Position numbers and translations under genes: made by a program. Positions 5,180-63,398 of a DNA stretch of 64,000 nucleotides are shown piece after piece. Source of the DNA: Escherichia phage vB_EcoM-RPN242. The notes beneath the pieces are model-generated. The model was given only the letters and a program-made list of their open reading frames with translations, ran no database searches and was not told the DNA's origin. Numbering within the stretch: position 1 is the stretch's first letter; every line of letters begins with the position of its first letter. The stretch is taken from the sequence record OL656110.1, one strand, 5' to 3'.

Positions 5180-5257
5180 TACTTTTTATTGAAAAGAAAG
5201 TTAACACCTAAGTGTTATAAGGTGCGCGACCAAGCGGAGCGCGAACTTGCGTGAATA

Positions 5258-15677: not shown

Positions 15678-16139
15678 CTACTCCGCCAGGGTGATCACAA
15701 CCATATTTAAGACTGTGTCGATAGCTCGGCCTGTTTCCTCTTCATGGAGGGTTTCGGCGCGGAGGTGCACGTCGGTGATGAAATTGTCGATGTGCATTGA
15801 AGTCAGATACGGGCGGTGTTGACTGACCGGGCGGTTGACCAGAACATAATTGCGCAATGTGTTGAAGTCCTGATGAGAGCACCCCGTTGTATCGATACGA
15901 AGGAAGCGTTCGTTGTGGCTTGTCTTCAGTTCAGTTACCTTGCCGAGGTAGACCAGAGGTCCATTGCGACCGATACGGAACATAACATCAACAACAGACT
16001 TGAAGATTTCGCGTTCAATTAGTGCGGTGGGTGACCAGCAGATCTCTTCTTTGTCATCGGCGTACAGGGTGTCGATCACCAGAGGGAGTTGAATGTAACC
16101 GAAGTTGTGCATTGGGTTGGTGAGTACTTTGTTTGTCAT
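15678..16139 (-). CDS. hypothetical protein (153 aa)
   Basis: ATG start with GGGAACTATATC leader; downstream of promoter cassette D. Confidence 0.55.
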   Translation of the reverse strand: MTNKVLTNPMHNFGYIQLPLVIDTLYADDKEEICWSPTALIEREIFKSVVDVMFRIGRNGPLVYLGKVTELKTSHNERFLRIDTTGCSHQDFNTLRNYVLVNRPVSQHRPYLTSMHIDNFITDVHLRAETLHEEETGRAIDTVLNMVVITLAE

Positions 16140-16244
16140 GATATAGTTCCCGCTTTCAATTTGTGGCGAATGCCAATGAATTACTGGGAAGTATAAGCGC
16201 AGGGATTATAGAAGTAAAGCCCCTCAATGAGGGGCTTTGGCTTG
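16140..16244 (-). promoter_or_regulatory. intergenic cassette D: hairpin terminator + TTTACT-N17-TATACT promoter + conserved leader
   Basis: Hairpin agcccctc-aat-gaggggct (16218..16236); minus-strand -35 TTTACT (16213..16218), 17-nt spacer, -10 TATACT (16190..16195); leader ends GGGAACTATATCATG; homologous to cassettes at 29252, 50853 and 63197. Confidence 0.5.
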
Positions 16245-20312: not shown

Positions 20313-21155
20313 TTAAATGTCATACAGATCGTTGACTTCCAGCATCAGGCGGGTGAAGTCGCCGCGCCCGTTGCGGTCAGACTTGTCGAACTCGATGATA
20401 CTGAACGGCTGAACCCATTCAGGGTACTCATCACCGACGCCAACACCATCGATCTTCAGGGTTCCGGCCTCCAACTTGGCGTTGAAGTCGCGGAAGGAAC
20501 TGACGTACTTTTCAAGGGCGCTGTCGCGCAGGCGCTTGTTGGACTGTTTGATGTCACCGTTGACGAAGATGTAAGTCGAGTCGGATGCGCGGGTCAGTAG
20601 GTTCTTCAGCTGCTCCATATCACATTCCTGCGCTTCTTCAATGATCAGGAAGGTGTCGTCGAAGGTCATCCCCTTGATGGTCTCCAGATCCTGGATCTCA
20701 ATAATCCGCTTCTCCCACAGATAGTTGAAGAAACCGTCGCTACCTGTGTCGGTCTTCAGCACCTTCTTCAGCGTCTGAATCAGGGGCATCAGATATGGCA
20801 TCAGCTTTTCGTATGTGTCGCCAGGACGGAAGCCTGCAGTCTGGCCTGTTGGCAGCGGAGAGCGCGTGATGACGATCTTACTGACCACTTTATCGATCAG
20901 GAGCTTGGCGGCGGCTGAGGCACCACAATACGATTTACCTGTGCCTGCCGGGCCGATTGCGATGGTGAGGTTTTCTTCAAGAGCAGATTGATACGCGAGG
21001 TTCTGATTTTCTGAGAGGCCATTGAACGGAGCGATTCTGAAGTCACCTTTAGAGAACTTCATCCAGTCATCTTCTTTCTGGATTGTCTCTTTCTTACGTG
21101 CTGACTTGGTCTTGCCCGCTGGCTTCTTACTTACAACTTTGGTGGCAGATTGCAT
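20313..21155 (-). CDS. phoH: PhoH-like ATPase
   Basis: 280 aa; ENQNLAYQSALEE ... GPAGTGKSY Walker A and PhoH-type downstream regions. Confidence 0.85.
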   Translation of the reverse strand: MQSATKVVSKKPAGKTKSARKKETIQKEDDWMKFSKGDFRIAPFNGLSENQNLAYQSALEENLTIAIGPAGTGKSYCGASAAAKLLIDKVVSKIVITRSPLPTGQTAGFRPGDTYEKLMPYLMPLIQTLKKVLKTDTGSDGFFNYLWEKRIIEIQDLETIKGMTFDDTFLIIEEAQECDMEQLKNLLTRASDSTYIFVNGDIKQSNKRLRDSALEKYVSSFRDFNAKLEAGTLKIDGVGVGDEYPEWVQPFSIIEFDKSDRNGRGDFTRLMLEVNDLYDI

Positions 21156-21221
21156 GGGAACCTTCCTATATCTCAGGGTGTCATCACCTCTAATTAAGGT
21201 GACAACCCCAGCATACCTGAG

Positions 21222-22705: not shown

Positions 22706-23194
22706 TTAGGCCAGTTTGCTCACCAGAGCTTCAACTGCGTCGGCGCTCAGTTTACCCATTTTGACGTACTGAGCTTTTGCTTCACCACCAGCCGCTTTCA
22801 CGATGTCGGTGTTGTCGTACCCCTTCTTAGGGAATACCATCACAGAGAAGGAACCGTTGTTCAGCGGGTTCAGCTGGATGCGACCTTTACCGACTACGAT
22901 GGTGCCGTAAGTTTCGGTGTTTGCTTCGACAATGTGGATGTCGTGACCCAGGTTTTTCAGCATACCAACTTTGTCGGCAGTCTTAGCAACCACAGCTTTG
23001 TCAACCACAACCTGCTCTACCAGGGTGAAGCCGTTAGTCGATTTCACTTTACCGTTCAGCAGGTTCATGAAGGAAGTTTTGCCACCAGTGAAGCCAGCCG
23101 CCTGAGCGATGCGGAACATTTCAACTTTAGCAACTTCGGTGTTCAGTTCGAAAGAGATGGTGCCGTTGGTGATCAGAGTTTTGGTAGTAGCCAT
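22706..23194 (-). CDS. hypothetical protein (162 aa), probably highly expressed
   Basis: Start at ATG 23194 with GAGGAATTACATC leader; flanked by a terminator downstream and an AT-rich structured upstream region. Confidence 0.6.
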   Translation of the reverse strand: MATTKTLITNGTISFELNTEVAKVEMFRIAQAAGFTGGKTSFMNLLNGKVKSTNGFTLVEQVVVDKAVVAKTADKVGMLKNLGHDIHIVEANTETYGTIVVGKGRIQLNPLNNGSFSVMVFPKKGYDNTDIVKAAGGEAKAQYVKMGKLSADAVEALVSKLA

Positions 23195-23340
23195 GATGTA
23201 ATTCCTCATAATGTAGTTGGTTCATTTCACTTTTCATTCGGCGGTGTGTTGCCGCCCTATGTGAACTATAATAGTGCATCATTATTGAAGAGTAAAGTCT
23301 TTTTCAATAATTTTTTAAAATATTTTTGAAGTATTTTAAA

Positions 23341-25319: not shown

Positions 25320-25673
25320 TTACGACAGCTGCTTCAGTTTGTAGATCGTCTGATAACACAGTGTCTTGATATCGTCAAGAGTGCTCTGAAGGTGGGAGTC
25401 ACACTGCTTGTAGATGCCATCGACGTCTATCACCACACTATTAATATAGGAGATAGGGTCTGGGTTGTACAATTTGATATTCTCGAATGATGGAACATAC
25501 TGACCACCCGCACCGATGTATGCTTCGGTAAACGTGTCCAGCAAGTCCTCTAGACCCCCGTAGAACTCCCCGAGTGCCTTGTGCTTGGCATAGGACGTTG
25601 TAACGAAGTGTAAGGCATGAGAGTGGGCTATAGCAAGCAGTCCACGGTTGATGAAAATACTCGCATTGACCAT
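25320..25673 (-). CDS. hypothetical protein (117 aa)
   Basis: Start at ATG 25673 (MVNASIF...) downstream of terminator hairpin. Confidence 0.5.
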   Translation of the reverse strand: MVNASIFINRGLLAIAHSHALHFVTTSYAKHKALGEFYGGLEDLLDTFTEAYIGAGGQYVPSFENIKLYNPDPISYINSVVIDVDGIYKQCDSHLQSTLDDIKTLCYQTIYKLKQLS

Positions 25674-28915: not shown

Positions 28916-29251
28916 TTATTTTTGAACTTGGGCTACAGACATCGCCCAGAGCGGGAGGGTGTGGGGGTCCAGGGCTTCCAGTAGATATTCGACGCGCTCT
29001 GACATGATACCTTCAGGGAAGTTTACTTCTTCTGGTTCGTTGTTGGCCGTCCAACCCAAGGTCAGTCCTTCAGCGTGATGGATGATATAAACGAAGTCGC
29101 CCGATTCGTAGTCCTTTTCCATCAGGGAGAAGAAATCTTCCATTTCTTCGTCGGAGAAGTAGTAGATGCGAGGTACGGAGCCGTCAGCAAAGTGCTCAGC
29201 ACCCTGGAAGGCAAACATGTCATCGGCGGTGAAGTTCTTGAGTTGTGTCAT
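28916..29251 (-). CDS. hypothetical acidic protein (111 aa)
   Basis: First ATG at 29251 (MTQLKNF...) with AGGAACTATATC leader; track start is TTG. Confidence 0.5.
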   Translation of the reverse strand: MTQLKNFTADDMFAFQGAEHFADGSVPRIYYFSDEEMEDFFSLMEKDYESGDFVYIIHHAEGLTLGWTANNEPEEVNFPEGIMSERVEYLLEALDPHTLPLWAMSVAQVQK

Positions 29252-29357
29252 GATATAGTTCCTGCTATTCAAGTTGGTGTCGTACTGCTTATGGAATGAA
29301 GTATAGGGAAGGATATTGAAGAAGTAAAGGGGCGAAAGCCCCTTTTATTGAATTATT
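29252..29357 (-). promoter_or_regulatory. intergenic cassette A: hairpin terminator + TTTACT-N17-TATACT promoter + conserved leader
   Basis: Hairpin ggggc-gaaa-gcccc (29329..29342); minus-strand -35 TTTACT (29323..29328), 17-nt spacer, -10 TATACT (29300..29305); 20-nt block 29286..29305 identical to 63331..63350. Confidence 0.5.
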
Positions 29358-35708: not shown

Positions 35709-36236
35709 TCAGATACCGATAAATTCATCAAAAGATCCAACAACCTTCTTCACCGAGATCTTGTCATTCTCAATCAGGAAGTTGCTGTCGTTTTTGGCTG
35801 CTGTGGCCCAGTCATCGGCAAGTTCGTTGCCTTCGTGCCCCGCATGACCCTTAACCCATTTTAGTTCAACATCACAAATTGAACAAACGAGATCATAGAT
35901 TCTGAACAGATCTTTGATGAGTTCAACGTTCTTTTCTGGGAAACCCTGATACTCCCACTTCGCTCGCCATTCGGTGACGCTCTTGATAGCATATTGGCTG
36001 TCAGACCAAATTGTTGCCTTTGGTATTCTGCGCTCACCCTTTCCTGAGAATGCCCACAGTAGCTTCAATGCGTTGGTCACACCCAACAACTCGGCGATAT
36101 TGTTAGTGGACGGGGGAGGTAGATGACCGAAGAACACCTTCCATTGCATACCCGTTATTGGCCTGATGACAAATGCCCATCCTGCGGCCTGGTTGGTCTT
36201 CGGGTTAGAACCCCCGTCAGAATAAATTTCTATCAT
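35709..36236 (-). CDS. rnhA: ribonuclease HI (RnhA-type)
   Basis: Start at ATG 36236 (MIEIYSDGG...); DEDD catalytic pattern YSDGG, NNIAELLGV, IWSDSQY, KGHAGHEGNELAD. Confidence 0.85.
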   Translation of the reverse strand: MIEIYSDGGSNPKTNQAAGWAFVIRPITGMQWKVFFGHLPPPSTNNIAELLGVTNALKLLWAFSGKGERRIPKATIWSDSQYAIKSVTEWRAKWEYQGFPEKNVELIKDLFRIYDLVCSICDVELKWVKGHAGHEGNELADDWATAAKNDSNFLIENDKISVKKVVGSFDEFIGI

Positions 36237-36238
36237 GA

Positions 36239-36246
36239 TATAAATA
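36239..36246 (+). promoter_or_regulatory. T4-type late promoter box TATAAATA
   Basis: Exact TATAAATA 36 nt upstream of the plus-strand ATG at 36282. Confidence 0.5.
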
Positions 36247-36281
36247 TCCCAAACTGGTTTTATAGAAAGAGGAATGAAACT

Positions 36282-39789: not shown

Positions 39790-40452
39790 TCACACCTCCA
39801 CCGCGTGAGACTTCAGGAGTTCATCAATCTCTTTCTGCCCCATGTATGAGAACGGGGTGCGCTGGTAGAACGCCCAGAGTACTAACTGGACAACAGCACG
39901 GGAACGGGTTTCGGCCGTCATCACCAGGCCACTGAAATGAGGAGACTCAGCTGTCCATTGTATCTCTTCGCCCAGGTCTTGATTACAGGTCACCGAGATG
40001 CGGAACTTGTTGCACAGATTGTCGACTTCTTTGTACGCATCGGTAGACACACGAAGTTGTTCCGAATGTGCCCACGGAGTTGTGACGATTCTTTCACCCA
40101 TCACTTTATCAGAGATAAACCAATCAATACATTCGGTAAACTCACTAAAATGGTCTATACGATAAATGCAGTCTCCCCCTTCCATAGAACGCATGGCATG
40201 ATAGCGAGAGTCGATTTCGTTGTTGTGCATCGCGTTGAAGTCGATGAACACGCGACGCGCCAGCACAACGTCTTCTGGTTGAAGTGCCAGGAAATCGTTC
40301 AGGCGGCTATAATGGAGGATATTGGAACCGTCGTGGCCACGTGTGCAATATGCGTAATAGCTACCGATACGGGCGTGGGCAATATAAGACAACGGGGCGA
40401 AGAATAATCCGTCAGGATCAGGACCGACGATAATAGAATAAAGTTTTTCCAT
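39790..40452 (-). CDS. hypothetical protein (220 aa)
   Basis: First ATG at 40452 (MEKLYSI...) with ...ACTATATC leader; track start is TTG. Confidence 0.5.
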   Translation of the reverse strand: MEKLYSIIVGPDPDGLFFAPLSYIAHARIGSYYAYCTRGHDGSNILHYSRLNDFLALQPEDVVLARRVFIDFNAMHNNEIDSRYHAMRSMEGGDCIYRIDHFSEFTECIDWFISDKVMGERIVTTPWAHSEQLRVSTDAYKEVDNLCNKFRISVTCNQDLGEEIQWTAESPHFSGLVMTAETRSRAVVQLVLWAFYQRTPFSYMGQKEIDELLKSHAVEV

Positions 40453-40508
40453 GATATAGTCACTCAAATGAAAGGGCAGCTTTATGATAAGCCGCCCGAG
40501 GTTATTGA

Positions 40509-43436: not shown

Positions 43437-43807
43437 AACGTACCCCCGACAGAGATCAAGAACTCTTCTTGCATGGTCTTGACCGGGTGGTGGTTGCGGG
43501 TTTCGAACATGAAGCCCCAGCCACCGTCGGCGACGTTGCCAAAGGTCTTGACGCCAAAGGACTTCGTCCCGTTAGAGCAGGAATAGATGTCCAGGACGTA
43601 TGGGCTACCCTGATTGTCGATCCCACGATTCACGTCGTCTGATACGCAGCGCTCAATCATCTTCCCGTTCTTATACAGAACGAGGTCTTGGCCATACGCC
43701 TTGAAAGCATAAACACCGTTGGTAGACACTCCGGTGATGACAGGAGGGGCGGAAACAGCAGCAAAGGAAGCGCCCAGCAGAGCAACAGCGAGGATTAACT
43801 TTTTCAT
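43433..43807 (-). CDS. secreted hypothetical protein
   Basis: Start at ATG 43807 (MKKLILAVALLGASFAAVSA...) with AGAGACTATATC leader. Confidence 0.55.
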   Translation of the reverse strand: MKKLILAVALLGASFAAVSAPPVITGVSTNGVYAFKAYGQDLVLYKNGKMIERCVSDDVNRGIDNQGSPYVLDIYSCSNGTKSFGVKTFGNVADGGWGFMFETRNHHPVKTMQEEFLISVGGTL

Positions 43808-43866
43808 GATATAGTCTCTTGGTTTCAAATGGGCGGGGTAATCATACCCCGCCCAAAGTTATAGAA

Positions 43867-44106
43867 TTAACTGATGTGCTTCAGAAGAGCGAAGAGGATC
43901 GCGGCCTTGGCCTTTACCTTTCCCACGATGCCTGTCTCGACATCAACTTCTTCAGCAACCCACTCTTTGCCTTTCTTGCTGATGATCACGTCACGGCGCT
44001 GTGCGTAGACTTCTTTGGTCGCATACACACGACGGAACCCTTTAGCGCGGAGCAATCCCCAATTACGATCAATTTCTACTGAGGTTTCTACCATTTTGTT
44101 CTTCAT
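43867..44106 (-). CDS. hypothetical protein (79 aa)
   Basis: Complete ORF with ATG start. Confidence 0.45.
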   Translation of the reverse strand: MKNKMVETSVEIDRNWGLLRAKGFRRVYATKEVYAQRRDVIISKKGKEWVAEEVDVETGIVGKVKAKAAILFALLKHIS

Positions 44107-44189
44107 GATATAATCTTACCTTTCAACCCGGTGAACCCATCGTTCGCCAGTTATTGAATAATAGGACATTCCTTAGAGGAAGTAAACCC

Positions 44190-44223
44190 CTAAAAGTAAA
44201 AATCCCCAACGTTTGTTGGGGAC
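44190..44223 (-). terminator. rho-independent terminator
   Basis: tccccaac-gttt-gttgggga hairpin (44203..44222) followed on minus strand by TTTTTACTTTTA. Confidence 0.7.
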
Positions 44224-46796: not shown

Positions 46797-47004
46797 TGTT
46801 CTCTTCGCCTTGTGCGTAAGGGTTAAGTTCAGACTCATCAGCGGCTTCGATGCGCGTCTTTACAGAGTCCAGCATATTGTTGATAAACTCACGAGACTGC
46901 TCCAGCTGAGCCAAGAGCACATCCTTTGGAGCATAGTTCTGAATGCAAGCCGGAATACTTTCAGACGTCGCCTTCAGGTCGGTAAAACATTCTTTCAGTA
47001 TCAT
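46789..47004 (-). CDS. hypothetical protein (71 aa)
   Basis: Complete ORF with ATG start; overlaps vWA gene start by 8 nt. Confidence 0.45.
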   Translation of the reverse strand: MILKECFTDLKATSESIPACIQNYAPKDVLLAQLEQSREFINNMLDSVKTRIEAADESELNPYAQGEENND

Positions 47005-47086
47005 TTGATCTCACTTAACAGAGACGACACCCTGTTGGGATTTAATAGCGGTCTTCACGCGCCAGGGGTGATAGAATCACCGTAGA

Positions 47087-47320
47087 TCAGGCCGATGTGC
47101 TCATCCAACAGGAAGTGCCCAGTTTCAAAGATCTCCCACAGGCGCTGGATAGAGCCAACCGCTTCTGAACGTCTGATGATTTGATGTGAGCATCAATCAC
47201 CACGTTCTGAACATGGCCGATAGGGATACCAGATTTTTGAATCTTGATATGTTCCTCACCACCTGGGAAGGTGAAGTGTTTGTAGAACACATCTTGGTCG
47301 TTCAATTTCAAACGAAACAT
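47087..47320 (-). CDS. hypothetical protein; reading frame appears to continue in another frame
   Basis: 77-aa ORF with ATG start; after about residue 47 a protein-like continuation (RSEAVGSIQRLWEIFETGHFLLDEHIGLIYGDSITPGA) exists in a different frame ending near 47055. Confidence 0.4.
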   Translation of the reverse strand: MFRLKLNDQDVFYKHFTFPGGEEHIKIQKSGIPIGHVQNVVIDAHIKSSDVQKRLALSSACGRSLKLGTSCWMSTSA

Positions 47321-48833: not shown

Positions 48834-50852
48834 TTAGAACACAACTTTCACAGTGCGGTTGAACGAACCGCTCACCTTCACGAACACGTGGTTGCGTTGG
48901 GTGGTAGAGAAGCCCAGACCGGACAGCTGCTCAGTGCTTGGCTGTACTTTAATCTTACCACCTAACATTTCAAAAACCTTGCGGTGTTTATCAAGTTCCG
49001 GCTTCAGATATTCGTTATAGAAACCACGGGTGCCGACAGGGTTAGCACAACCTTCCAGGATGAAGAACACGTGCTTGTTGCCAGTCTGCTCGCCGTCCCA
49101 ATGGTTTGGTGAGTTCAGAACCAGCTGTACCTTCTGGAAGACGGAGGTCTTGATGCCCCAGATTTCCTGAGAGCGAGCGTCGTCTTTCAGGGTAGAACTG
49201 ATGTCAACCACCTGACCAGCGCGAACCTGAACCACAACAGCCAACGTGCGATCTTTGTTGCCCAGGCCAGGGTGTGAGAAGCGCTTAGTCTGGCCTTTGT
49301 ATTCAACTTCGATTTCGAAACCAACGTCACAGGTTTCACGCTTGTTGAAGTTGGTGACATAGAACTCATAATTCCCGTCACGCAACTTGCGTTCATCGCT
49401 AAAGAAGATGTTCTCCACCGGACGGCGGTTTGGATCAATGCCGTCCATACCGTTCATGTCGATGTCCAGAGTTGCGCCAGTTGTCGAACGACGGTTGCGA
49501 AAATATACGTGGTTGTGAAGAGGATCGTTCATGCTCAGATCCAGGTCGTCGTTGTTATGCCAAGCCAGTGACACGCGGAGGAAGCTGTCGACATTGCCGC
49601 CTGCGGTCTTCACGCGCTCTTTGATGGAGTCGGCCACTTCGCCATTGTACGACCAGCTGAAGCCGTTGTTCCACTTGAACAGGTTAGGAGCGCCTGCGGT
49701 AGCCGGAGCGATCAGGGACATCAGGTTGCCAATGTGAGAGTTTTCGACCAGCACTTCTAGGGAATGCGCCTTTGGCAACACGTTGGTCAGGAAGTCGTCG
49801 ATCGTGATCTCTTCAACCTTGTCCAGGGACTTTGTCGGAGTCTTCACTTCAGACGCCAGCTGAGCAAACGGGTCCATCTTCTTCTGAGCTGCCAGATCGG
49901 CGAACAGAACGTTGTTGATGGTCAGATCGTCATACACGGCATAACGGCGACCCAGTGAATCAGTCAGACCCAGCGCTTCGACTTCTTTCTGCGCGTTTTC
50001 AATCATCGACTTCGTGACCAGCGCGGTTGGGCGCTTGTAGTTCGTCGGAGCGACTTTGGCTTCAAAGGACTTCACGGCGGTTTCCAGATCCCGGCCTTCA
50101 TTGAGGTCTACCAGCAGAGAGCCAATCACGGTATTACGAATGCCGTGAGGGGTATGACCGTTTGCACGGTAGCCAGTGCGCCAAGCCCACAGAGCGCGTT
50201 TCTCTTCTGCAGTTTGTTCGTACAGGGTCTTGTTCACCACGAACGCCTGCACTGCCGCTTTGTGCTCTTCACCGCGATACAGAGAATTCTGGTCGATCAA
50301 TTCCAGAACGATTTCAGCCGATTCCAGAGACAGTTCACGCAGGCCGCGCTCAAACACTTCAATCGCCTGGCGGATTTCACCCTTCTTAGAAGCGATGGTA
50401 TCTGCCCGCAGAACATAGCTGCTCAGCAGGTCGGTGTGGAAGTGGTTGTAGGTGCGGACAATACCGTCTTTCATTTCGTGATTCGACCCAACACCAACTT
50501 TCTTGGTGTCGTTGAAGTACACGTCGACGATTGCGTGCTGCTTAACATATGCTGACAGCGCCGCAGCGACAACGTCGTATTCGTTACCCAACTGAATGTT
50601 ATCCCAGATAGAGATCACGTTCAGGTCGGAGTCGATGGTGACCACACCGCCGATGTTACGGATGAATTGTTTACAGCAGGTGCAGTCGTGCTCGGTACGC
50701 TCACGATAAAGCGGGTTAGTGCCAGCAGGGAAAGAAGACAGATACAGATCCCACAGAGCATCTTTATCGATGTTGGTCATGAACAGACCAGTTGCTGACA
50801 TGGCCCGCACGTTATTGTTGACAGCTACTGCGAAGGACTTAAAATCTGACAT
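48834..50852 (-). CDS. large hypothetical protein (672 aa) with N-terminal Cys cluster
   Basis: ATG start with AGGAAGATTACATC leader; HDCTCCKQF near N-terminus; no Walker or polymerase motifs recognised. Confidence 0.7.
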   Translation of the reverse strand: MSDFKSFAVAVNNNVRAMSATGLFMTNIDKDALWDLYLSSFPAGTNPLYRERTEHDCTCCKQFIRNIGGVVTIDSDLNVISIWDNIQLGNEYDVVAAALSAYVKQHAIVDVYFNDTKKVGVGSNHEMKDGIVRTYNHFHTDLLSSYVLRADTIASKKGEIRQAIEVFERGLRELSLESAEIVLELIDQNSLYRGEEHKAAVQAFVVNKTLYEQTAEEKRALWAWRTGYRANGHTPHGIRNTVIGSLLVDLNEGRDLETAVKSFEAKVAPTNYKRPTALVTKSMIENAQKEVEALGLTDSLGRRYAVYDDLTINNVLFADLAAQKKMDPFAQLASEVKTPTKSLDKVEEITIDDFLTNVLPKAHSLEVLVENSHIGNLMSLIAPATAGAPNLFKWNNGFSWSYNGEVADSIKERVKTAGGNVDSFLRVSLAWHNNDDLDLSMNDPLHNHVYFRNRRSTTGATLDIDMNGMDGIDPNRRPVENIFFSDERKLRDGNYEFYVTNFNKRETCDVGFEIEVEYKGQTKRFSHPGLGNKDRTLAVVVQVRAGQVVDISSTLKDDARSQEIWGIKTSVFQKVQLVLNSPNHWDGEQTGNKHVFFILEGCANPVGTRGFYNEYLKPELDKHRKVFEMLGGKIKVQPSTEQLSGLGFSTTQRNHVFVKVSGSFNRTVKVVF

Positions 50853-50966
50853 GATGTAATCTTCCTGTTTCAGTTCAAATGTGCGCCCCGTTTGCCAGGG
50901 CGCTTCGTTTAAGTGAGGTCAGTATACGCTGGATTGAGTTATTGAAGAACGAAGTAAAGGGAATCT
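50853..50966 (-). promoter_or_regulatory. intergenic cassette C (degenerate copy): TTTACTTCGTTCTTCAATA ... TATACT plus leader hairpin
   Basis: Minus strand carries CCCTTTACTTCGTTCTTCAATAACTCAATCCAGCGTATACT (TATACT = 50921..50926) and leader hairpin gcgccc-cgtttgcca-gggcgc (50883..50903); -35/-10 spacing is non-canonical. Confidence 0.35.
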
Positions 50967-54106: not shown

Positions 54107-54571
54107 TTATTCGCTTTTTGCCTTTGTAGGCCGGATGATGTATTTTGGAACCAGCTTCCATTCAGGAACCTGATCGTGTTTAACCACTTTAATGCGAGAC
54201 ATATCGGCTGCTTCGGTGACCTGCTCAGGATGAATGACCTTCACCATGTTCCACTGCTCCAGCAGCTTGATGATTCGGTTCATCCTCAGGACATCTTCGC
54301 GGTTAAATCCGTTGTAATGCCCGTCCAGCATAAATAGATGCTTAAAGTGGACGATATAATACTTACCACACTTATGAAGAATATGGCAAGTCTGATACAG
54401 AGTATTCGGCTCTTGGCGCGTGTTTACCCCAATTCGACTCAGTGTTTCCTTGATCCCCAGAAATATACCTGGCCGATCTTGGTTCAATTGAACTTCAACC
54501 ATACAATCAACGATGCTGGCCTCATCGTTGACTGCTGAAATATTCAATATGTCTAGCGTATTACGCGCCAT
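54107..54571 (-). CDS. regA: translational repressor RegA
   Basis: 154 aa; LYQTCHILHKCGKYYIVHFKHLFMLDG and PEWKLVPKY match T4 RegA. Confidence 0.8.
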   Translation of the reverse strand: MARNTLDILNISAVNDEASIVDCMVEVQLNQDRPGIFLGIKETLSRIGVNTRQEPNTLYQTCHILHKCGKYYIVHFKHLFMLDGHYNGFNREDVLRMNRIIKLLEQWNMVKVIHPEQVTEAADMSRIKVVKHDQVPEWKLVPKYIIRPTKAKSE

Positions 54572-55056: not shown

Positions 55057-56017
55057 TGGTCAGGAAAAACACGGCATGCAGCCAGACATCGCCGACTTGA
55101 CGGTGTTCAATCTGAGACTGACCACATACGCATACCAGATCAGGGATAGACTCATTCTGAACCAACATTTGCTTCTCTTTATCCTGTGGTACACAGAACT
55201 GGAAGAAGCGGGAATAGAAGTCTTCAGTGATATAGTTCTGGTTGTCGGTCACCCACTGCTTCATCCCAGCCCAGTCATTATCCTTCAACATATCCACCAA
55301 CATGCCCATATCGGCCGATTTTAACACAGCCAGTGCACGTTCGTCAATCTTGCCGTAAGTGGTGACGTTATCCTGTAGAACACCCATGATGCGGCGGTTA
55401 TCAGGGAAATGGCGCTTGACAATAGCAGCCAACACAGGAGGGTCATACTCAACACCTTCGCAGCGAAGGATTTCAGCACAGCGGCGCATGAACTGAAGTT
55501 TGACCTCATCAGCCTCGGTCTCATTCCAGATAAAGTCGATTTCACGGCAACGAGAGCGCAGAGGTTCGTTCACACGTTGCTTGGCGTTGGTGGTCAGGAT
55601 GAATGAACAGTTCTTGGAGACCTTCTCCACAATACCCTTCAGCGACTCCTGTGCCGCCATAGACAGACGCTCTACTTCGTCGAGGATAACGACTTTGCGA
55701 CCACCGAATACGCTCACACCAGTAGAGTACTGAATCACGCGGTCACGGATAACGTCGATGCTGTTGTCCAGGGATGCGTTGATCATCAGTGGTTGCTTAC
55801 AACCGATTTCATTACACACGGCCAGGGCGGAGGTAGTCTTGCCAGTACCAGGCTGAGGGGAGTAGAACAGCATAGACGGGATGTTGCCGTTGCCGCTGGT
55901 GATGTAGCCATGGATTTTAGCGCGGACGTCTTGAGGGATGATAATCTCGTCCAGGTTGTCAGGGCGGAAGCGGTTTTCCCATGCATACTGGTCTTTTACA
56001 ATTGTGATATTAGACAT
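55028..56017 (-). CDS. 44: clamp-loader ATPase (T4 gp44-like, RFC family AAA+)
   Basis: 329 aa; collinear with T4 gp44: NRFRPDNLDEII, Walker A SPQPGTGKTT, VVILDEVE, SRCREI. Confidence 0.9.
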   Translation of the reverse strand: MSNITIVKDQYAWENRFRPDNLDEIIIPQDVRAKIHGYITSGNGNIPSMLFYSPQPGTGKTTSALAVCNEIGCKQPLMINASLDNSIDVIRDRVIQYSTGVSVFGGRKVVILDEVERLSMAAQESLKGIVEKVSKNCSFILTTNAKQRVNEPLRSRCREIDFIWNETEADEVKLQFMRRCAEILRCEGVEYDPPVLAAIVKRHFPDNRRIMGVLQDNVTTYGKIDERALAVLKSADMGMLVDMLKDNDWAGMKQWVTDNQNYITEDFYSRFFQFCVPQDKEKQMLVQNESIPDLVCVCGQSQIEHRQVGDVWLHAVFFLTNVMLNIKWK

Positions 56018-56098
56018 TTTCAGCCTCGTGTAGAAGAATCATTTCAAATAGGCGGGGAACGCCCCGCCCACACATTATAGCATCAGGCTGGAGATTGA

Positions 56099-56767
56099 TT
56101 ACTCAATCTGTGCGCCGACGAAGTAATTGATCGTCGCGTCGGATGATTGGAAGTTCACCATCTGTAGATCAGCACAGGCACGCAGAGTGTAGTTGCCTTC
56201 GATCATTTTCAGGTTGGCAACATCCAGCGGCATTACGAAGTCCGGCAGCGCGGTTTCGCCCAGCTCAACAGTGTAGTTGTTGGAGTTGTCCAAGGTAGTG
56301 GTGGTTGCAACCAGGCGAGTTTTGCCACCCTGAGCAACCAGGCGCACAGTCTTGTGTCCGAGGGTAGAGCAGGCGCGGGTCAGTTCTTTCATCTTCTCTG
56401 GAGTGATGATCGCTTCAAAGTCAACAGACGGCAGTTCAATGGTGTCAGCCGGGACAACCGTGAGTTCTTTAGCAGAACGCCAGAATTGCAGCTGAGAGCT
56501 TTCGCCTTTCAACAGGATGTAGTCCTGATGGAATTCGGCTTTGGCACCTTTGAAGGAAGGTAGGCGCTGGATGGCCAGAAGTTTGGTCAGGTCCAGAATC
56601 GGGAACTCAAACGGGAAGTCTTCTTCGATCTGCGCCACGGCGATCACAGTAGAAGAATCATTAATACTGCGCAGCATCTTACCCGGTGTCAGAACGATAG
56701 ATGGGTTGATGGTCTCAAAGTTGGCCAGCAACTGAAGTGTACGTTCGGAGAGAGTGATCTCTTGCAT
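56099..56767 (-). CDS. 45: sliding clamp (T4 gp45-like)
   Basis: 222 aa; N-terminal TLQLLANFETINPSIVL parallels T4 gp45 TALLKNFATINSGIML; position upstream of gp44/gp62/regA as in T4. Confidence 0.75.
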   Translation of the reverse strand: MQEITLSERTLQLLANFETINPSIVLTPGKMLRSINDSSTVIAVAQIEEDFPFEFPILDLTKLLAIQRLPSFKGAKAEFHQDYILLKGESSQLQFWRSAKELTVVPADTIELPSVDFEAIITPEKMKELTRACSTLGHKTVRLVAQGGKTRLVATTTTLDNSNNYTVELGETALPDFVMPLDVANLKMIEGNYTLRACADLQMVNFQSSDATINYFVGAQIE

Positions 56768-62241: not shown

Positions 62242-62408
62242 GGTAGTTTGTAAACGAAGTTGGACCAGAACTTACGAACAAACTTCTTGACATAAACCAT
62301 TCGGTTGGCGTATTCCCCATCCTTCAGGTCATTGTAGGTCTCGATCCCTACCGCGCCCAAGAAGTACGCCGTGAAGATATAGCAGAACAGATTGATGACG
62401 ACAAACAT
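62238..62408 (-). CDS. small membrane protein (56 aa)
   Basis: Manual translation MFVVINLFCYIFTAYFLGAVG...; GGAGATACATC leader; below track cutoff. Confidence 0.4.
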   Translation of the reverse strand: MFVVINLFCYIFTAYFLGAVGIETYNDLKDGEYANRMVYVKKFVRKFWSNFVYKLP

Positions 62409-62448
62409 GATGTATCTCCGCTGTGTGTACTCAATTATTTATGGTATG

Positions 62449-63196: not shown

Positions 63197-63398
63197 GATA
63201 AAGTCCTCTATTTGTAGGGGATAGGGTATGCGGTTAACATACCCTGTTCAAAGGTTTAGAACAAATTGCTGCAATGTTACTTTGTAACGAGAGTGGTGAT
63301 AGTTCCTTCATTTCAGAGTCAGTGTTGTGCTGCTTATGGAATGAAGTATACGGGGTTTATTGAAGAATTAAACCCCGTATATTGAATAAATTTAAAAT
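63197..63398 (-). promoter_or_regulatory. intergenic cassette B: TTTAAT-N16-TATACT promoter + conserved leader
   Basis: Minus-strand -10 TATACT (63345..63350) and -35 TTTAAT (63367..63372); 20-nt block 63331..63350 identical to 29286..29305; leader contains ATGAAGGAACTATCACC and a hairpin before the 63196 start. Confidence 0.45.

Follow-up and report, generated by a model that had tools for sequence, protein, structure and literature searches.

Among described systems, the closest to the sequences analyzed here are the promoter-early stem-loops (PeSLs) of T4-like phages, which, in two published accounts, open with stop codons within an AT-rich tract, continue with a stem-loop and a sigma70-like promoter, and close at the 3' end with a Shine-Dalgarno (SD) sequence and a start codon (PMC2839356, PMC4122927). 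According to the same accounts, PeSLs precede ORFans and are involved in the gain, loss and exchange of ORFs (Arbiol et al. 2010, PMC2839356; Comeau et al. 2014, PMC4122927), their promoter consensus in T4/PST is TTTACW-N17-TAYWAT (PMC4122927), and ~50 of them are reported for RB49/phi1. A second system is that of the RegA operators of phages T4 and RB69, which are A/U-rich, carry a 5' poly(A) tract (aaAAUUGUUAUGUAA; AAUAAUAAUAA), contain no Cs, and are bound at a position overlapping the AUG or just 5' of it (PMC3014915). The RNA-binding residues of T4 RegA are K14, T18, R21, W81, R91 and F106 (PMC3014915).

Here, the window denotes the whole 64,000-nt stretch of Escherichia phage vB_EcoM-RPN242 (OL656110.1) that was analyzed. 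A 7.9-kb piece of it shares 98.5% identity with Escherichia phage YX22 and 92% with Shigella phage Ag3 as well as Salmonella phage SKML-39. These three phages are Ackermannviridae, and the source of the window is an Ackermannviridae (ViI/Ag3-like) phage. Nearly all genes of the window lie on the minus strand; their starts (n=87) were mapped over from the YX22 annotation, and the assignments are backed by PHROG profiles, whose alignments to the proteins start within residues 1-3. To increase statistical power and include structural genes, the complete YX22 genome was assembled (185 starts). Klebsiella phage T765, CBA120, Vi01 and Serratia phage phiMAM1 served as comparison genomes, cassette conservation was compared over four Ackermannviridae genomes (the window, T765, CBA120 and Vi01), and the host sample consisted of 111 E. 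coli K-12 genes. An IMG/VR single-protein search gave only 5 close relatives, and annotated phage records were used instead. Compared with the window, YX22 harbors two additional ORFs, one between gp45 and gp44 (window 56018-56098, YX22 89062-89718) and one by the primase gene (window ~24652, YX22 55480-56136); the former took over the gp44 start site, leaving AACTATATCATG and a 6-codon mini-ORF that overlaps the new gp44 start. Another ~2.3 kb of YX22, including a nicotinamide phosphoribosyltransferase gene, is absent from the window (window ~47004-47320, YX22 78709-81326), where the neighboring gene is reduced to 77 codons.

The preliminary description of this DNA had reported that many genes share a start context, namely an SD-like element followed by an A/T-rich spacer ending in ATC, and had offered two readings of it, a class of RegA operators or a preferred initiation context. 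All seven strings that it cited are present on the minus strand with their ATG in place, and the recurrence of the context is borne out by an enrichment far above chance in both the window and YX22. The string TAYATCATG has nine matches in the window, each of them at a gene start on the minus strand (16139, 23194, 29251, 36236, 40452, 43807, 44106, 50852 and 62408), where dinucleotide-preserving shuffles of the window give 1.03 on average and never more than 4, and three of the six one-mismatch matches to CTATATCATG are further starts (6315, 54090, 63196). ATC occupies positions -3..-1 at 14/87 window starts versus 2.6% of all window ATGs (binomial p = 6e-8), and in YX22 it precedes 30/185 start codons (16.2%) versus 2.4% of all ATGs. 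CTATATCATG itself is found in seven copies in YX22 (~0.3 expected), six of them at annotated starts, and CTATATC is the second most enriched 7-mer within 40 nt upstream of YX22 genes, standing at six of the 185 starts where a position-independent model built on the phage's own start-site frequencies predicts ~0.12. The start-site signal consists of two layers: a short ATC preference and a long form, (A)CTATATC or TTACATC.

The long form stands before the ATG at the 3' end of repeated ~110-bp cassettes, in which stop codons are followed by a GC stem-loop and the promoter-like pattern TTTACT-N17-TATACT/TATTAT, behind which a leader and a weak SD run up to the ATG. The stop codons sit in an AT-rich tract, TTCAATAA, at the 5' end of the cassette, and TAAAATAATTCAATAAAA precedes the stem-loop. 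YX22 contains five TTTACT-N17-TA[TC][AT][ACT]T sites, each with TAYATC-ATG 49-74 nt downstream, and the window contains four TTTACT-N17 promoter-like sites (16190, 23268, 29300, 44158), with distances to the ATG of 49, 51, 52 and 74 nt. Of the stem-loops, three (16216-16238, 29326-29346 and 44204-44221) either overlap the -35 box or lie upstream of it, and a fourth (23240-23257) lies just after the -10 box. As regards uniformity across early and late genes, which the preliminary description had held to speak against a repressor operator, the two layers differ: ATC is spread across gene classes, whereas the long form is tied to the TTTACT-N17-TATACT/TATTAT pattern (Fisher p = 4e-6, YX22), although a crude contrast of late with non-late genes was not significant for it (1/20 vs 11/76, p = 0.45). 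The long form is also concentrated at free-standing intergenic start sites, with 12/96 bearing it versus 1/89 elsewhere (p = 0.003).

The long-motif sites are not simply 'strong', since their SD pairing is weaker than average (-4.3 vs -6.0 kcal/mol, p = 0.006), and a reading as strong ribosome-binding sites was rejected on this ground. These start sites have a lower window MFE (p = 0.03-0.04), and their lower opening energy is a trend only, not significant (p = 0.05-0.07). The genes downstream of the cassettes are all of unknown function by PHROG/Pfam profiles, and paralogy of their products was rejected as the cause of the repetition, the PHROG families being all different and the proteins unrelated. 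A generic sigma70 scan returned 19 sites versus 18.0 in shuffles, leaving only the specific TTTACT-N17-TATACT form informative. The combination of TTGAAA and TATATC was rejected as a promoter, its spacing of 8-9 nt being too short; the TTGAAA/TTTGAA element is largely the U-tract after hairpins running into the purine-rich SD. As a separate observation, TTC[AT]ATAA boxes are ~4-fold enriched in YX22 (41 vs ~9.5 expected), are intergenic, lie 31-168 nt upstream of starts and often supply the TAA stops at the 5' edge of cassettes; in the window they are found on the minus strand at 5193, 6377, 16213, 23289, 29352, 36267, 43866, 44158, 50946, 56846 and 63364. Such a box may be a stop/AT tract only, or a promoter element.

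All of the individual sites described below are on the minus strand. The gene starting at 16139 (g16139; 15678..16139, 153 aa), one of the cited examples, matches the profile phrog_3902, to which no function is assigned. Its start-site module, GGGAACTATATC-ATG (16137..16151), is invariant in the window, T765, CBA120 and Vi01; a putative sigma70-like promoter, TTTACT-N17-TATACT (16190..16218), ends 51 nt upstream of the ATG, and the GC stem-loop AAAGCCCCTC-att-GAGGGGCTTT (16216..16238), predicted to form part of a terminator or attenuator, overlaps the -35 box and shows compensatory stem changes in relatives. The same arrangement precedes g29251, with AGGAACTATATC-ATG at 29249..29263, a putative promoter TTTACT-N17-TATACT at 29300-29328 and the stem-loop AAAAGGGGC-tttc-GCCCCTTT at 29326-29346. 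A degenerate copy of this cassette, comprising a -10 box, a leader and a AAGGAACTATCACC remnant that lacks the ATG, lies at 63295..63364 (repeat family D9, 86% over 37 nt). In the cassette of g44106 (44104..44221), the stem-loop (44204-44221) is followed by TTTACT-N17-TATTAT (44158-44186) and TAAGATTATATC-ATG (44104-44118), and in that of g23194 (23192..23296), TTTACT-N17-TATTAT (23268-23296) is followed by a leader hairpin (23240-23257) and GAGGAATTACATC-ATG (23192-23207). The leader of g50852 (50850..50958) carries TTTACTTC...TATACT (50921-50958), whose non-canonical spacing makes a promoter uncertain, followed by a hairpin (50883-50903) and GGAAGATTACATC-ATG (50850-50865). Part of this leader (50866-50905), consisting of the hairpin and ATTTGAACTGAAACAGGAAGA, is conserved nearly base for base as far as phiMAM1 (orthologous leaders L011, L012, L013), and is thus kept much better than typical non-coding sequence, while the 672-aa protein of g50852 is 56% identical to its phiMAM1 counterpart; this pattern suggests that the leader may be a functional RNA element.

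The string is also found at 43807, 40452, 36236 and 62408, where it has no promoter; only 4-5 of the nine window sites are promoter-bearing. At g43807 (43805..43854), the hairpin GGGCGGGG..CCCCGCCC (43831-43854) is followed by ATTTGAAA and AGAGACTATATC-ATG (43805-43819) with no promoter between, and at g40452 (40450..40497) a hairpin (40474-40497) is followed by TTTCATTTGA and GAGTGACTATATC-ATG (40450-40465); both promoter-less sites thus directly follow a hairpin and TTTGA. The remaining two are GGAGATACATC-ATG of a 56-aa gene (phrog_4845; 62406..62419) and GGGATATTTATATC-ATG of the RNase H gene (36234..36250), the TTATA(T)C of which is kept in CBA120, Vi01, T765 and phiMAM1. The hairpins at 43831-43854 and 40474-40497 belong, together with those at 56051-56069 and 23240-23257, to a GGGCGG(GG)...CC(CC)GCCC family, of which three run directly into TTTGA and the SD of the next gene; they may be terminators that are read through into the next gene, or 5' stabilizers. 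Elsewhere, the leader of a PhoH-like gene (21140-21175) contains GATATAGGAAGGTTCC, an interrupted complement of GGAACTATATC that is probably a coincidence.

The cassettes are conserved among relatives up to the start codon. Alignment of the g29251 cassette from the window, T765, CBA120 and Vi01 (alignment A2) showed conservation from the stop codons through the stem-loop, -35 box, -10 box and leader to GGAACTAYATY-ATGA, beyond which the coding sequences fall into two unrelated groups that gave no BLASTP match to each other. In the alignment of the g16139 cassette (A3), the stretch ending in GGAACTATATCATG, i.e., ATTGAA.AGCRGGAACTATATCATG, is invariant in all four phages, and the stem of the cassette shows compensatory changes; behind this cassette lies the g16139 ortholog in the window and T765, and an extra, unrelated ORF in CBA120 and Vi01. 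Paralogous cassettes also occur within the window (repeat families D3 and D9), and the similarity between several copies reaches 30-110 nt upstream. A 123-nt cassette has 609 matching places, spread over 276 phage records that come almost entirely from Ackermannviridae host genera, with typically 2-4 places per record among the matches listed, and the promoter-bearing copies number only about 5 per genome.

Conservation of the string itself is uneven. GAGACTATATCATGAAAAA is exactly conserved in T765 at 51% protein identity, which is the case of the start-site module of g43807, and the identity of positions -8..-1 to T765 is 0.80 for motif genes versus 0.52 for others. No consistent excess was seen against CBA120, Vi01 or phiMAM1, and the idea of a general excess conservation at motif genes was dropped, as the T765 comparison alone shows it. 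The T765 conservation (GAGACTATATCATGAAAAA and the -8..-1 identity) may point to selection on the sequence itself, more than a generic open spacer would require.

The long identical strings belong to repeated stem-loop/promoter/leader units: the long string (A/G)GGAACTATATC-ATG and its TTACATC variant probably constitute the ribosome-binding end of a repeated ~110-bp PeSL-like early cassette. In such a cassette, the GC stem-loop should stop transcription arriving from upstream, and the sigma70-type promoter TTTACT-N17-TATACT/TATTAT would give the following ORF its own transcription start; the leader would set the ATG 49-74 nt after the -10 box, behind a rather weak SD, and the G-free, U/A-rich spacer before the AUG would offer a ready-made open start site for any ORF placed behind it. 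The copies are paralogous, and recombination or replacement junctions would fall at the ATG, which would bring the same string before unrelated genes. From these patterns we infer promoter activity, early timing, an effect of the spacer on translation and recombination as the mechanism. Since four of the string sites have no promoter, shared ancestry of complete cassettes cannot account for all copies.

The cassettes share with PeSLs the same parts in the same order, ending with SD and start codon, a promoter that fits the T4/PST consensus TTTACW-N17-TAYWAT, genes of unknown function behind them, a position at loci of ORF insertion or replacement among relatives, and the existence of degenerate copies. 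They differ in that the phage belongs to the Ackermannviridae, whereas those accounts take their PeSLs from T4-like Straboviridae, in a copy number of about 5 per genome, far below the ~50 of RB49/phi1, and in the near-constant distance of 49-52 nt that separates the -10 box and the ATG in four copies. The conserved SD-to-ATG spacer (CTATATC) is, in the PeSL descriptions as far as examined, not a described feature, and in our phage the promoter, the terminator and mini-circle formation are predictions from sequence alone. The genome papers of Ag3 and LIMEstone give sigma70-like early promoters, T4-like late promoters and terminators, and in their searched parts make no mention of the start-site motif or of the cassettes.

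The short layer has a different standing. The preference for A(-3) T(-2) C(-1) extends to all gene classes: ATC precedes, in YX22, the major capsid, portal and tailspike genes, as well as several genes behind T4-like late promoters. The E. coli K-12 sample shows position-wise preferences like those of the phage, with ATC at 7/111 starts (6.3%), and the phage share of 16.2% is about 2.6 times that of the host (p = 0.017); once the long-motif genes were taken out, ATC at 18/172 phage starts was not distinguishable from the host's 7/111 (p = 0.29). Among the triplets at these positions, ATC also ranks first in Vi01 (9/49) and T765 (9/48), though not in phiMAM1 (2/41). As a general start context, the short A(-3)U(-2)C(-1) preference is an exaggerated version of the host's own, sharing with the enterobacterial context a G-poor, A/U-rich spacer, A at -3 and U at -2. 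The preferred initiation context of the preliminary description holds for this short layer, which late structural genes and the host have too, but misses that the long strings belong to PeSL-like cassettes kept to the ATG. Two further sources of the short context were considered and rejected. A phage initiator tRNA favoring C at -1 finds no counterpart, as the tRNA-Met of YX22 has a G1-C72 pair and lacks the GGG/CCC anticodon stem, and is hence of the elongator or Ile2 type (no tRNA genes were found in the window); extended anti-SD pairing of ..AUC with G1530-A1531-U1532 of 16S rRNA, examined by hand, is in register only for a few late genes (GGAGATTATC) and not for GGAACTATATC. Separately, the T4-like late-promoter core TAAATA sits 29-48 nt upstream of the ATG in some 20-26 YX22 genes, and within -40..-1 it is found at 19 YX22 genes versus 1.2 expected; among these are structural genes and also regA, a helicase gene and the DNA polymerase gene, with examples in the window upstream of regA (54571), helicase (59005) and the gene at 25673.

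Could such a context account for the long strings as well, each gene having been independently selected for a spacer that is unstructured, poor in G and carries A(-3)U(-2)C(-1), with the 7-10-mers arising by convergence? The position preferences shared with the host, where slyD has GGAGATATC-ATG, the rank of ATC in Vi01 and T765, its presence on late structural genes and the promoter-less sites at 43807, 40452 and 36236, which bear the string all the same, are consistent with this view, as is a likeness to the leader of T7 gene 10, GAAGGAGATATACATATG (GAAGGAGATATACAT-ATG), a strong phage leader that resembles the long string. We nevertheless regard convergence as doubtful. The exact repeats exceed what position-wise preferences predict, as the CTATATC counts given above demonstrate, the similarity between several copies extends well upstream of the string, and the string stands at a fixed distance from a single promoter type, with which it is tightly associated; alignments A2 and A3 already point to shared ancestry or recombination of cassette copies, and the long-motif sites differ from the T7 leader by SDs that are weaker than average.

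The other reading offered in the preliminary description drew on a RegA homolog, whose presence is confirmed. The 154-aa ORF (54107..54571, minus) lies directly after gp45-gp44-gp62, giving the gene order gp45-gp44-gp62-regA as in T4, and matches PF01818 over its full length (positions 1-121 of 122, E = 2e-34) as well as the structure of T4 RegA (PDB 1REG, E = 4e-26); RegA is already annotated in Vi01, T765 and phiMAM1 (MAM_081). Counted from the start of this ORF, the protein has a 23-residue N-terminal extension relative to T4 RegA (54503-54571, minus), and a late-promoter-like CTAAATAG lies 36 nt upstream of the ORF. On this reading, the homolog, or another phage RNA-binding repressor, would recognize CUAUAUC-AUG between SD and start, with GGAACUAUAUCAUGACA as the candidate RNA ligand, and would bring about a later shut-off of early mRNAs. 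The phage has a full-length RegA gene behind gene 62, the place that it occupies in T4, and the string abuts the ATG in 9/9 copies, which is where the T4 and RB69 proteins bind (PMC3014915); the sites share with T4/RB69 operators their A/U-richness and paucity of structure, being somewhat less structured locally, and their weaker SDs are ones that a repressor could outcompete. The string is, moreover, specific to the class of genes behind sigma70-like promoters and strictly conserved in some orthologs despite low protein identity, and T18, R21 and W81 of the T4 RNA-binding groove are kept in the homolog.

Against this, the homolog has G, V and H in place of K14, R91 and F106, and the orthologs of the known T4 targets, gp45 (56767), gp44 (56017), gp62 (55023) and regA itself (54571), have no motif at their starts. 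phiMAM1 encodes RegA, yet has the long motif at 0/41 orthologous start sites; orthologous sites drift to CTACATT, TTTAAC and CTATACC, and the -8..-1 region, as noted, shows no consistent excess conservation outside T765. The ligands themselves also look different: T4 operators are without a sharp consensus, whereas the motif here is a sharp 7-10-mer, and in contrast to the C-free T4/RB69 sites with their 5' poly(A) tract, GGAACUAUAUC lacks such a tract and contains Cs, as does GGAACUAUAUCAUG, which has two. The cassette model, furthermore, accounts for the repetition without any repressor. Since the gp45, gp44, gp62, regA and phiMAM1 starts lack the motif and T4 operators look different, the RegA-operator reading is unsupported, and we consider it unlikely. 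The more specific proposal, in which CUAUAUC-AUG would be a dedicated operator by which a repressor (the RegA homolog with G14, V91 and H106, or another protein) switches off the early-cassette ORFans as a block, appears to us quite unlikely; if true, it would provide the first sharp, definable RNA consensus for a RegA-family protein.

Lastly, a signal acting at the DNA level or through antisense RNA, with a DNA-binding protein or a phage small RNA as its partner, is highly improbable: a TCATGA palindrome in 4/9 copies and the fixed 7-10-mer nature of the string would suit it, but every copy lies on the coding strand, immediately next to the ATG and without offset, a search of the window and YX22 for an antisense or complementary copy of the motif found none, the only plus-strand near-match being inside a coding region, and Rfam gave no matches in the window at gathering thresholds.

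The reading as PeSL-like early cassettes opens no new mechanism, and it carries the caution that the presence of a RegA gene alone does not make a repeated start-site string a repressor operator. The cassette would provide a compact marker for early transcription units and for the annotation of start codons in Ackermannviridae. If the reading is correct, PeSL-type mobile regulatory cassettes extend from T4-like phages to the Ackermannviridae, and this would explain how unrelated accessory genes are swapped while their expression signals are kept, in therapy-relevant phages such as the relatives of ViI, CBA120, Ag3 and LIMEstone.
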